From the NCBI GenBank assembly GCA_016284485.1, contig JAEEOX010000154.1, forward strand, positions 1 to 29,455: a DNA stretch of 29,455 nucleotides, in the 5' to 3' direction. This document shows, piece by piece, positions 22,887-25,420 of the stretch. This DNA is from Bacillota bacterium. GTDB lineage: Bacteria > Bacillota > Clostridia > Peptostreptococcales > Anaerovoracaceae. Each line of letters opens with the position of its first letter. Positions within the stretch are counted from its first letter, which is position 1. Both the position numbers and the translations under genes were made by a program. Under the pieces are notes generated by a model that was given only the letters and a program-made list of their open reading frames with translations, did not search any database and was not told the origin of the DNA.

Positions 22887-23543
22887 ATGAAATACGAAGA
22901 CATAGCCAAGAACAAAGAAGTTCTCGAATACTATAACCGGGCCTGCACGATCCTGGACACCCTGGGTTACACCGATCACTCCACAGCCCACACCACCCTG
23001 GTGGCAAAGAGGGCTGCGGACATACTGGAGGCTTTCGGCTACAGTCAGAAAGAGATCGAACTGGTAAAGATAGCCGGCTTCATGCATGATATCGGAAACG
23101 CCCTGAACAGGCATCATCACGCAGAGTACGGCGCCCTGCTGGCCAACGAGATCCTCAAGGAGACCGACCTTTCCGTCGAAGACCGCGTCCGCGTCGTCTC
23201 CGCCATCGCCAATCACGATGAATCCGACGGTGTCGCCGCCGATCCCGTCTCTGCGGCACTGATCATCGCAGACAAGACCGACGTGCGGAGGACCCGTGTG
23301 CGCCAGAAAGACCCCATGCAGTTCGACATCCATGACCGGGTGAACCACGCTGTCACCGACACCAGGCTCAGATGCGGCAAGGAGGAAAAGAGGATAACAC
23401 TCTACCTCACCATCGACGAGAGCATCTGCACCATGTACGAATACTTTGACATATTCCTGGAACGCATGACCATGTGCTCCCACGCAGCCCGAGTCCTGGA
23501 CTCCACCTTCTCACTCAAGGTGAACGGACAGAGAGTGCTGTAA
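22887..23543 (+). CDS. HD-domain phosphohydrolase
   Basis: DHSTAH, MHDIGN, HHAEYG, NHDE, IADKTD metal-binding pattern. Confidence 0.88.
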   Translation: MKYEDIAKNKEVLEYYNRACTILDTLGYTDHSTAHTTLVAKRAADILEAFGYSQKEIELVKIAGFMHDIGNALNRHHHAEYGALLANEILKETDLSVEDRVRVVSAIANHDESDGVAADPVSAALIIADKTDVRRTRVRQKDPMQFDIHDRVNHAVTDTRLRCGKEEKRITLYLTIDESICTMYEYFDIFLERMTMCSHAARVLDSTFSLKVNGQRVL

Positions 23544-23559
23544 GATATATATGTATAAC

Positions 23560-23591
23560 AAAAGCCGGCGCTGGGATGCGCCGGCTTTTTT
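23560..23591 (+). terminator. Intrinsic terminator (possibly bidirectional)
   Basis: aaaagccggcgc-tgggat-gcgccggctttt then TT. Confidence 0.85.
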
Positions 23592-23648
23592 GTGTGCTGT
23601 GGGTGTGGGGGGTTCGGATGTCATTTTTTATCCGCGTAACTCCGATTA

Positions 23649-23839
23649 TACTGTACGATCTGGATTTTTTGTAATAGTACAGTAAAAAATCTTCATTTTC
23701 CTTGGAAAAGCCTTGTTTTCAGCCTGTTTCCCTCAGTTTTCTCAAAGTAATTACTGTACATATAGAGAAAATCTATTTTGTACAGTAAAACACGGAACCT
23801 CCCTACTGTACGATTTTAATATTTTGAAATCATACAGTA
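23649..23839. repeat. Array of three TACTGTAC-N20-(G/A)TACAGTA inverted repeats
   Basis: Units at 23649-23684, 23752-23787 and 23804-23839; each spacer is exactly 20 nt. Confidence 0.9.
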
Positions 23840-23892
23840 ATGCGGGTCGACACAATTCCAAGCCTAGCCTTTTGCCCCTCGCCCAACAACAT

Positions 23893-23923
23893 AAAAACAG
23901 GCGCAGCCATGTGCTGCGCCTGT
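23893..23923 (-). terminator. Intrinsic terminator after the isomerase gene
   Basis: acaggcgcagc-catgt-gctgcgcctgt 11-bp stem followed by T run on the minus strand. Confidence 0.8.
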
Positions 23924-23941
23924 ACATTCCATTATTTTCCT

Positions 23942-25420
23942 TTAGAACGGATTCTCCCCGGGATATCTCATGCCGGCGGGCTGATTGAAGCCGATTTCGG
24001 ATACGGGCACGCCCAGAAGCTTGAAGACTTCGTAGATGGCTTTGCCGTGATGTCCGAAGGCCACCGCGCCGTGGTGCGGGAAGTGCTTTTCCAGGAGCAC
24101 GTGGCGGTAGAATCTGCCCATCTCCGGGAAGGCGAAGACACCTGTGCCGCCGTAGGAGCGTGTTGCCACCGGAAGGACCTCTCCTTCAGCGATGTACGCG
24201 CTGATGCCGCCCTCAGCTGTGCCCTGGAGGCGGTAGAGCGTCACGTCGCCGGGAACAAGGTCGCCTTCCATGGTGCCCTTGGTCACCGTCAGCGGCAGGT
24301 TGCGGCTCATTATCCTCTGGTTGCACATGGTGCGGGTCTGGAGCCTACTGGAGCAGGTGTTTCCGCAGTGGAAGCACATTATCGTGTCTGACTGTTTGTA
24401 GTCGTACTTGCCCTTGATGGACTCCTCGTACATGTCGCGGGGGATGGAGTTGTTGATGTCAAGGATGGTGACAGCGTCACCGGAGATCACCTGGCCGATG
24501 TACTCGGAGATGGCTCCGTAGATGTCCACTTCGCAGCCTACGGGGATGCCGGAGCCCGCGATGCGGGAGTTCACGTAGCAGGGCACGAAGCCGAACTCGG
24601 ACTGGAAGGCGGGCCAGCACTTGGTGGTGAGCACCACGTATTTGCGGGCACCCTTGTGCTGCTCAGCCCAGTCTCTTAAGGTCAGCTCATACTGGGCCAG
24701 CTTGGGCAGGATGTCCGGGATCAGGTTGCCTGCGCCAAGTTCTGCCGCCATGTCGGCAACTACGTCGCCGATCCTCGGATCGTCCGCGTGCTTAAGATAT
24801 GAATCGTAAAGATCCATCTCAGAGTTTTCCTCAACTTCTACGCCCAGATCGAAGATCTGCTTGATGGGAGCGTTGCAGGTCAGGAAGTCATAGGGGCGGG
24901 GTCCGAAGGAGATGAGCTTCAGGTCCTTCAGGGCAACCAGTGCCTTGGCGATGGGTACGAATTCGTTGATCCTGTCTGCCAGTTCCTCCGCGGTTCCCAC
25001 GGGGCGCTCCGGGATGTATGCTTTCACGCCTCTCATGTTCAGGTTGTAGCTTGCGCTCAAGAGGCCGCAGAGAGCGTCTCCTCTTCCGTCCAGCAGGTCC
25101 TGCTGTGACTCTTCAGCCGCCGCCACGTACATGGAGGGGCCTCCGAACTGCTTGGCGAGCATGGTCTCCGGGATCTCCGGGCCGAAGTTGCCCAGGAAAA
25201 CGCACAGCGCGTTGCATCCGGCCTCCTTCACGTCCTCCAGAGCCTTCATCATGTCGATCTCGCTCTCGATGATGGTTGGACATACGTAGAGTTCGCTTGC
25301 GTCGTACTTGGAGGCGTAGGCCTTGGCCAGCGCTTCCCTCCTGGATTCTGACAGGGACGCCGGGAAGCAGTCGCGGGAAACGGTCACGAGGCCGATCTTG
25401 ATCTGAGGTACATTGTTCAT
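23942..25420 (-). CDS. L-fucose/L-arabinose isomerase family protein
   Basis: VSRDCFP, FLGNFGPE, KCWPAFQ, CEVDIYG, FHCGNT, FPHHGAVAFGH; AAGGAG RBS. Confidence 0.8.
   Translation of the reverse strand: MNNVPQIKIGLVTVSRDCFPASLSESRREALAKAYASKYDASELYVCPTIIESEIDMMKALEDVKEAGCNALCVFLGNFGPEIPETMLAKQFGGPSMYVAAAEESQQDLLDGRGDALCGLLSASYNLNMRGVKAYIPERPVGTAEELADRINEFVPIAKALVALKDLKLISFGPRPYDFLTCNAPIKQIFDLGVEVEENSEMDLYDSYLKHADDPRIGDVVADMAAELGAGNLIPDILPKLAQYELTLRDWAEQHKGARKYVVLTTKCWPAFQSEFGFVPCYVNSRIAGSGIPVGCEVDIYGAISEYIGQVISGDAVTILDINNSIPRDMYEESIKGKYDYKQSDTIMCFHCGNTCSSRLQTRTMCNQRIMSRNLPLTVTKGTMEGDLVPGDVTLYRLQGTAEGGISAYIAEGEVLPVATRSYGGTGVFAFPEMGRFYRHVLLEKHFPHHGAVAFGHHGKAIYEVFKLLGVPVSEIGFNQPAGMRYPGENPF

Follow-up and report, generated by a model that had tools for sequence, protein, structure and literature searches.

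Helically phased palindrome arrays in a gut clostridial genome and a candidate nuclease-fold partner

An array between two convergent genes

What occupies the gap between two genes that point at each other? The window (the whole stretch of 29,455 nucleotides analysed here) is contig C132 of a Bacillota bacterium of the Anaerovoracaceae (assembly GCA_016284485.1, contig JAEEOX010000154.1), whose 1.63-Mb genome, referred to below as G000, is a 92% complete metagenome-assembled genome (MAG) in 215 contigs. An HD-domain gene (22887–23543, plus strand; Pfam PF01966, E 2.5e-9; orthologues in the related genomes G006 and G002) runs into the gap from the left and a fucose-isomerase-like gene (23942–25420, minus strand; PF02952, E 1.8e-26) from the right, the latter with orthologues that are 98% (G006) and 96% (G002) identical. 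As the initial annotation had stated, there are terminators on both sides: that of the HD gene (23561–23591, plus strand) is a hairpin with its stem at 23570–23585, followed by a T-run (TTTTTTGT tail), and that of the isomerase-like gene (23897–23923, minus strand) an 11-pair stem read from 23923 to 23897, with a TTTTAT tail. Given an A-run on its 5′ side, the HD-gene terminator is possibly bidirectional. The gap had also been described as promoter-less, and we likewise found no sigma-70-like promoter in it.

Both genes lie outside a gene-less composite element of ~260 bp at 23612–23870. It starts with a small, hairpin-like left box, CGGAT-GTCATTTTTT-ATCCG (23615–23634, plus strand, as for all parts below), which aligns in six sister copies of the genome (contigs C112, C79, C102, C81, C59 and C90) and in the G002 orthologue, and whose loop is also kept in sequence among sister copies. 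Unit 1 follows at 23649–23684, reading TACTGTAC-N20-GTACAGTA with a T6 tract at its centre. The second slot (23685–23751) comprises a conserved linker, AAAAATCTTCATTTT, and then a non-palindromic, more GC-rich module in place of a unit, a layout common to the C112, C79, C81 and C59 copies and conserved in the G002 orthologue. Unit 3 (23752–23787; TACTGTAC-N20-GTACAGTA, A-rich tract at the centre) is joined by the linker AAACACGGAACCTCCC (23788–23803), kept among sister copies with the consensus GTACAGTAAAACAYGGnnCC in C79, C81, C90, C112 and C132, to unit 4 (23804–23839; TACTGTAC-N20-ATACAGTA). In the alignment, the shared element ends with a right flank (23840–23870) that includes the box GACACAAT at 23849–23856 (sister copies: TTGACATAA; family form (T)TGACA(T)AA).

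Units thus occupy three of four 52-bp slots. A pattern search confirmed the three annotated units as exact matches to TACTGTAC-N20-RTACAGTA, a motif that occurred in 0 of 100 dinucleotide-preserving shuffles. The spacing of their starts, 103 and 52 bp, is as had been noted; the larger distance, however, is better read as two steps of a four-slot array whose second slot is taken by the non-palindromic module, just as in four sister copies. The spacers had been held to differ in sequence, whereas they turn out not to be unrelated and to follow the family pattern given below.

Is the gap transcribed? In three rumen metatranscriptomes, contigs lie on both neighbouring genes and end near their stop codons, and 0 contigs of these low-depth, assembled sets fall on 23510–23960. 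A search of the gap against Rfam 15 gave no family at gathering score, only sub-threshold matches to the flanking terminators. The gap is covered in a DNA run, whose contigs break inside the array, as is to be expected of a repeat; within 23570–23760, one such contig continues into the sister array on C90. The sequencing runs that contain the window are from cattle and sheep gut.

A dispersed and conserved repeat family

Allowing one arm mismatch, we count 37 units of the TACTGTAC type at 11 loci in G000, and a reversed control pattern gave 0 matches. All loci have four slots, with unit starts spaced by 51–52 bp; steps of 103–104 bp mark slots where a unit is replaced or degenerate. When oriented, all 11 copies align over about 260–300 bp through the left box, units, linkers and right box, and they have two linkers in common, GTACAGTAAAAAAATCTCATTTT and the consensus given above for the junction of units 3 and 4; the left box of the window copy differs from that of the gene-linked copy described below and belongs to a different subfamily. 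The 20-nt spacers of the family conform, in one polarity or the other, to rrATCnnn-TTTTTTGA-nATn. Variation between C and T at arm position 8 and between G and A at position 29 is not strand-consistent, and the inner halves of units are often non-complementary, which favours half-sites in double-stranded DNA over RNA stems. The arms resemble the E. coli LexA half-site, but an assignment as LexA/SOS box agrees neither with the distance between 8-mers (N20 versus N4) nor with the context.

Could the arrays be operators of an ordinary transcription-factor regulon acting on their neighbours, or else serve recombination, as accessory sites, or partition? As phased palindromes they have the typical form of operators, and the arrays that precede the cognate gene probably act in this way. 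Yet Pfam annotation of 29 flanking ORFs portrays the neighbours of the 11 arrays as functionally unrelated (HD, DeoC, Fe-hydrogenase, Na/H antiporter, MatE, amino-acid kinase, ferredoxin, ECF-S, M20 and C1 peptidases, ABC transporter, FtsW, SSB, tRNA-editing domain and YgjV), most arrays sit at gene 3′ ends, and the window gap is devoid of a promoter-like site. Convergent gene pairs flank 6–7 of the 10 gene-less copies in G000, as compared to ~13% of all gaps and 20% of gaps of at least 250 bp genome-wide, a background from rough automatic greedy ORF calls that misassigned strands at several loci and served for this purpose only. Neighbours that are unrelated and mostly convergent rule out a regulon. 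As to recombination or partition, which the initial annotation had brought up by analogy, the arrays have no linked recombinase, ParB or Y1 transposase, and a set of 11 dispersed loci is at variance with the function of a single res, dif or parS site. Altogether, we regard this family of explanations as very improbable. A flanking protein family shared between loci was also considered and discarded, the two large unannotated ORFs beside the C81 and C112 arrays being unrelated to each other.

How widespread are the arrays? The exact motif is present in one of nine congeners, the sister species G002, and in 0 of 31 further relatives from the family and order; in a 400-genome sample of the class, the sole match outside G000 is one isolated unit in G234. 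Scanning 185,579 species genomes for two adjacent units yielded, besides G000, only G002 and three rumen Lachnospiraceae with 1–5 loci each, namely Butyrivibrio sp. SIG346, Butyrivibrio sp. FCS014 and Lachnospiraceae bacterium AC2012. All three annotated loci, two from AC2012 and one from FCS014, have unrelated genes on either side, and those of AC2012 are flanked by convergent ones. Motif and 20-nt spacing hence recur in G000, a congener and three rumen Lachnospiraceae; the lack of such recurrence had been named as an argument against function.

Comparison with G002 speaks to age and constraint. Here, arrays occur at positions orthologous to those of C81, C102, C190 and, on the HD-gene side, the window copy on C132; the window array is therefore not the excision scar of a mobile element that had been suggested earlier. 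Between the two genomes, 149 of 160 arm positions (93%), 170 of 200 inner positions of the 20-nt spacers (85%) and 413 of 524 positions in the rest of the element (79%) are identical, as against 60% of 752 sites that are four-fold degenerate, taken from five flanking genes. In inert DNA, one would not expect better conservation than at four-fold sites. For the most part the copies are old, with matching locations in the two genomes.

In G006 the convergent HD/isomerase-like pair is kept and the gap is filled by an unrelated 170-bp repeat. No TACTGTAC units were found in this genome, the closest G006 homologue of the cognate gene carries different repeats, and at the locus orthologous to C102 a single degenerate unit is left, so that orthologous loci in G006 display replacement or decay rather than a precise empty site. 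The ~170-bp repeat contains a GAGCAA-N20-TTGCTC hairpin and is found at L037:1230–1420, in the gap orthologous to window positions 23544–23941, and twice more on G006 contig C48 (L046:1440–1620 and 2620–2800). We considered it as an arm-switched array; it proved to be a separate repeat with three copies.

The units of G002 have themselves been invaded. In at least four arrays, an unassembled IS-like repeat resides in the A/T-tract centre of units, with contig ends on C54, C51, C32 and C6 for one end and on C42, C48 and C55 for the other (loci L038–L044). Its insertion duplicated ~10 bp of target (at the C190-orthologous array, TCAGTTTTTT), and it lacks terminal inverted repeats. The units would accordingly be an insertion hotspot, as are the PUs of E. 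coli for IS1397. The arrays further break short-read assemblies, with contigs ending inside them in G000 and G002, and array repeats probably explain several contig ends in both genomes.

Did some transposase spread the arrays as a purely selfish, non-autonomous mobile element of the MITE or REP type, now inert and devoid of partner and role? This would account for a dispersed family with common linkers and flank boxes, for its patchy spread (two of ten congeners plus the three rumen Lachnospiraceae), for the excess of orphan copies between convergent genes and for the different small repeat in the orthologous G006 gap. It would also fit the 280-bp stretch that C100 and C187 have in common at ~90% identity and with sharp ends, which attests to at least one recent duplication. 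Selfish and inert DNA is at odds, however, with the positions held since before G000 and G002 separated and with the excess of identity over four-fold sites just described. Moreover, the 11-copy alignment reveals neither terminal inverted repeats nor target duplications at the element ends, and a profile of the Y1 transposase (PF01797) had no match in the 92% complete G000 genome, whereas controls matched. We therefore consider this explanation unlikely, and turn to a partner protein.

Gene-linked arrays and a predicted nuclease fold

The copy on C187 differs from the others in that its array stretch runs into a ribosome-binding site and the opening codons of a gene that the contig end truncates. 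The C100 counterpart has lost the ATG, and its array stretch is not followed by a gene. A metagenome contig (JAEEGI010034140.1; L074) supplies the missing part: it matches C187 at 100% over the 112 residues compared and encodes a full 262-aa ORF, whose start codon follows the last of the same four TACTGTAC units at a distance of 25 nt, as in C187. Neither Pfam, NCBIfam nor PDB sequences gave a match to this 262-aa family, which nevertheless comprises at least 1,781 clusters at E≤1e-5. Among the 120 clusters listed, all are named 'hypothetical protein', most measure ~262–265 aa and the source assemblies are Firmicutes, Clostridia, Lachnospiraceae or Eubacterium. Within the genus, 8 of 10 genomes have the gene, in 1–7 copies. 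In G002 (a 94% complete MAG with arrays at contig breaks), we found no orthologue of the cognate gene above 64% identity, though the arrays are conserved. A tblastn search with five family proteins detected no gene remnants within 1 kb of the orphan arrays, the window copy included. In the literature, the motif string retrieved primers and unrelated sequences only, and a keyword search nothing on such gene-linked palindrome arrays.

What kind of protein is this? We modelled the C93 paralogue with AF2 from a 40-sequence alignment (mean pLDDT 90). In the model, residues 1–145 comprise one helix, a beta meander of three strands and a further, long helix, and residues 146–262 form an alpha/beta domain for which Foldseek returned TnsA (probability 0.99), Bax1 (probability 0.98), restriction enzymes and MJ1519 (E 5.9e-5). 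The same C-terminal domain matches the C-terminus of the PADLOC candidate PDC-S68 (E 1e-18 to 1e-25). An RSKSE motif, E159, E176, D190 and E205-H206 are invariant in the 40 sequences, and the L074 protein retains RSKSE, E176, D190 and E205-H206. The C-terminal half is thus predicted, from model and residues, to belong to the PD-(D/E)xK superfamily (restriction-endonuclease/TnsA-like). Separately, an ORF at C117:10251–10751 of G000 (L066) matches only the C-terminal nuclease-like domain (31% identity, residues 95–259).

Paralogues come with arrays of their own, and the arms differ from one to the next. Directly upstream of the C93 gene (463–1251, minus strand; 262 aa; L064), six TACTAGTR-N20-YACTAGTA units with a 52-bp period span 1265–1561; arrays of this TACTAGT type amount to 34 units on six contigs of G000 (C46, C90 at 108–300, C93, C95, C116 and C198). 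The C181 gene (4393–5184, plus strand; 264 aa; L065) is preceded by a 52-bp array of the GACCACA type, with arms CGACCACA/TGTGGTCG and a few further copies elsewhere in G000, including C32. Both arm types hence also have gene-less arrays in this genome. Outside G000, homologues have upstream arrays of 6 × 51 bp in G006 (orthologous to the C100 locus, with the same left box, AATCGTATACGATTTCGG), of TCAGTCC-N20-GGACTGA in G008, of AGACTG/CAGTCT and GAGACTGAG/CTCAGTCT in G003, of TCAGTCT at 52 bp in G001, of TGTGGCCCA/TGGGCCACA at 54 bp in G002 (8.8 copies) and of TAGTACTA in G007. Longer periods precede the genes of a Eubacterium sp. (84 bp, seven copies; L067) and of two metagenome relatives (64 bp in L079, 95–96 bp in L077), while no clear upstream array was seen at the distant homologues L068–L070 and L056. 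The periods of 51–54, 64, 84 and 95–96 bp approximate 5, 6, 8 and 9 helical turns. What recurs is a set of palindromes with fixed geometry and integer-turn period, directly upstream of a gene for a nuclease-fold protein and with arms specific to the paralogue; the window array is a gene-less member of this class.

AC2012 offers the simplest case. It has one homologue only, with an upstream array of six 52-bp TACTGTRC units, the last of which stops 48 nt short of the ATG, and every other TACTGTAC array in this genome is gene-less. Its protein is 38% identical to the TACTGTAC-type protein of G000 (27% in the N-terminal part). Like arms need therefore not mean close proteins, and specificity may reside in few residues or have arisen by convergence. 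In two AC2012 arrays (L071:853–1150 and L025:4720–5015), the spacers contain, on one strand, the Shine-Dalgarno-like GGAGGAAG in place of the A-tract of G000; spacer content thus appears lineage-specific, whereas arms and the 52-bp period are kept. Beside three TACTGTAC units at L026:2600–2800 there is directly adjacent a tandem TGGTGCA/TGCACCA array of the same 7-N22-7 geometry with a similar spacer, which may be an arm-switched sister array.

Might the units instead act as RNA hairpins, be it as a small RNA gene, as stabilisers of 3′ UTRs, as terminators of the convergent genes or as a structured 5′ leader at the gene-linked copy? Each unit is able to form an 8-bp stem and some are near-perfect 15-bp palindromes. 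Gene-linked arrays lie between the likely promoter region and the start codon and may thus be transcribed, and a position beside terminators recalls the REP sequences of E. coli, which are found next to terminators. The window array, on the other hand, lies beyond both terminators, belongs to no Rfam family at threshold and has no metatranscriptome contig although its neighbours are covered, the last being weak evidence in view of low depth and the use of assembled contigs. The strand-inconsistent arms and often unpaired inner parts do not behave as stems, and an integer-turn period that persists across unrelated arms has no meaning for RNA. We hold a role as RNA to be highly improbable.

A proposed binding platform and its relation to known systems

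The repeat family, the linkage of gene and array, the change of arms from paralogue to paralogue, the periods of integer turns and the degree of conservation are direct observations, and together they suggest that the product of the uncharacterised nuclease-fold gene probably recognises the arrays. On balance we favour the window array being an orphan DNA-binding platform for this cognate protein. The element at 23612–23870 would then represent a copy without its gene, built of four 52-bp slots, each normally holding one 36-bp TACTGTAY-N20-RTACAGTA unit. Protein dimers would read both 8-bp arms across a 20-bp spacer bent by its A-tract, and with units recurring every ~5 helical turns, several dimers could assemble on one DNA face into a cooperative complex. 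At the gene-linked copy, such a complex may control the protein's own gene, and orphan copies may be kept by selection as additional platforms. Their original spread would most likely have involved duplication or mobilisation of the array, as in REPIN/RAYT systems. Orphan copies might have a structural or topological role where convergent transcription units end, or serve the propagation of the protein itself. The initial annotation had envisaged a cis-acting site with its units on one face, read by a dimeric protein whose gene lies elsewhere; this part of it is supported by the candidate gene beside the sister array (C187/L074) and by near-integer turns in every related array, while its recombination and partition analogies have to be given up. 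One feature sits oddly with the binding platform: a conserved catalytic site is not what a purely DNA-binding role would call for, and it counts against our preferred explanation.

How does this compare to repeat systems known from other bacteria? The 36-bp partly palindromic repeats, their regular period and the adjoining nuclease-fold gene bring CRISPR arrays to mind. We rejected this assignment, as CRISPR arrays combine identical repeats with unique spacers of ~25 nt or more, whereas here the 15–16-nt 'spacers' are linkers conserved between loci, and the repeats vary in their inner part and are fixed in their arms. Another architectural parallel is provided by plasmid centromeres and iterons. 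In F sopC, 12 units of 43 bp, each with a 7-bp inverted repeat, are bound by SopB. What is alike is the tandem arrangement with a fixed period, an adjacent gene for the proposed binding protein and the proposed mode of reading, with a dimer on the short inverted repeat of each unit and cooperative loading on one face; unlike centromeres, the present arrays exist in many dispersed chromosomal copies, have no ParA/ParB or Rep gene and are paired with a nuclease-fold protein. That protein resembles TnsA, restriction-endonuclease-like nucleases and the C-terminus of PDC-S68 in predicted fold and conserved acidic residues. It departs from them in having no TnsB/C partner, methyltransferase or long defence protein, in its distinctive N-terminal domain and its own repeat array, and in showing nil sequence similarity to solved structures.

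In lifestyle the arrays resemble REP/REPIN (BIME) elements and their RAYT transposases (Bertels and Rainey, PMC3116915, PMC3337134). In both cases, short palindromes are dispersed extragenically and often clustered (11 loci and 37 units in G000), several families coexist in a genome, each with its own cognate gene that is itself repeat-flanked, positions are fixed and inherited, with decay as in G006, and the nearest G006 homologue carries other repeats. Insertion sequences target the units here, in G002, as IS1397 does the PUs of E. coli. Membership in REPIN/RAYT was nonetheless rejected, given the absence of a Y1 transposase from the 92% complete G000 genome and the different architecture of the units. 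The cognate protein has a predicted PD-(D/E)xK rather than a Y1/HUH fold, in keeping with the lack of PF01797 in G000; 8-bp arms around a 20-bp A-tract spacer form rigid tandem arrays at integer turns and not single hairpins or doublets; the arrays accompany the gene on its upstream side only; and no transposition intermediates are known here. Nor do the units correspond to inverted REP doublets that fold into a long hairpin, their spacers being mostly unpaired and the tandem arrays of mixed polarity.

Tentatively, then, the arrays and the ~262-aa PD-(D/E)xK proteins may constitute an undescribed partnership, widespread in gut and rumen Clostridia, in which the protein maintains, and perhaps copies or cuts, a private population of arrays, and through which the REPIN/RAYT lifestyle could have been invented a second time, by an independent mechanism, with specificities that are readable and switch fast. 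If true, a large unannotated protein family would gain its first functional context, its DNA targets could be read straight from the genome, differing from paralogue to paralogue, and natural matched pairs of protein and site would become available for specificity switching in a restriction-endonuclease-fold protein. With its one gene and four array loci, AC2012, an isolate according to its genome record, would allow direct tests of the system. Such partnerships of a repeat with an enzyme would, if this holds, have arisen more than once, with REPIN/RAYT and the arrays described here relying on different enzyme folds.
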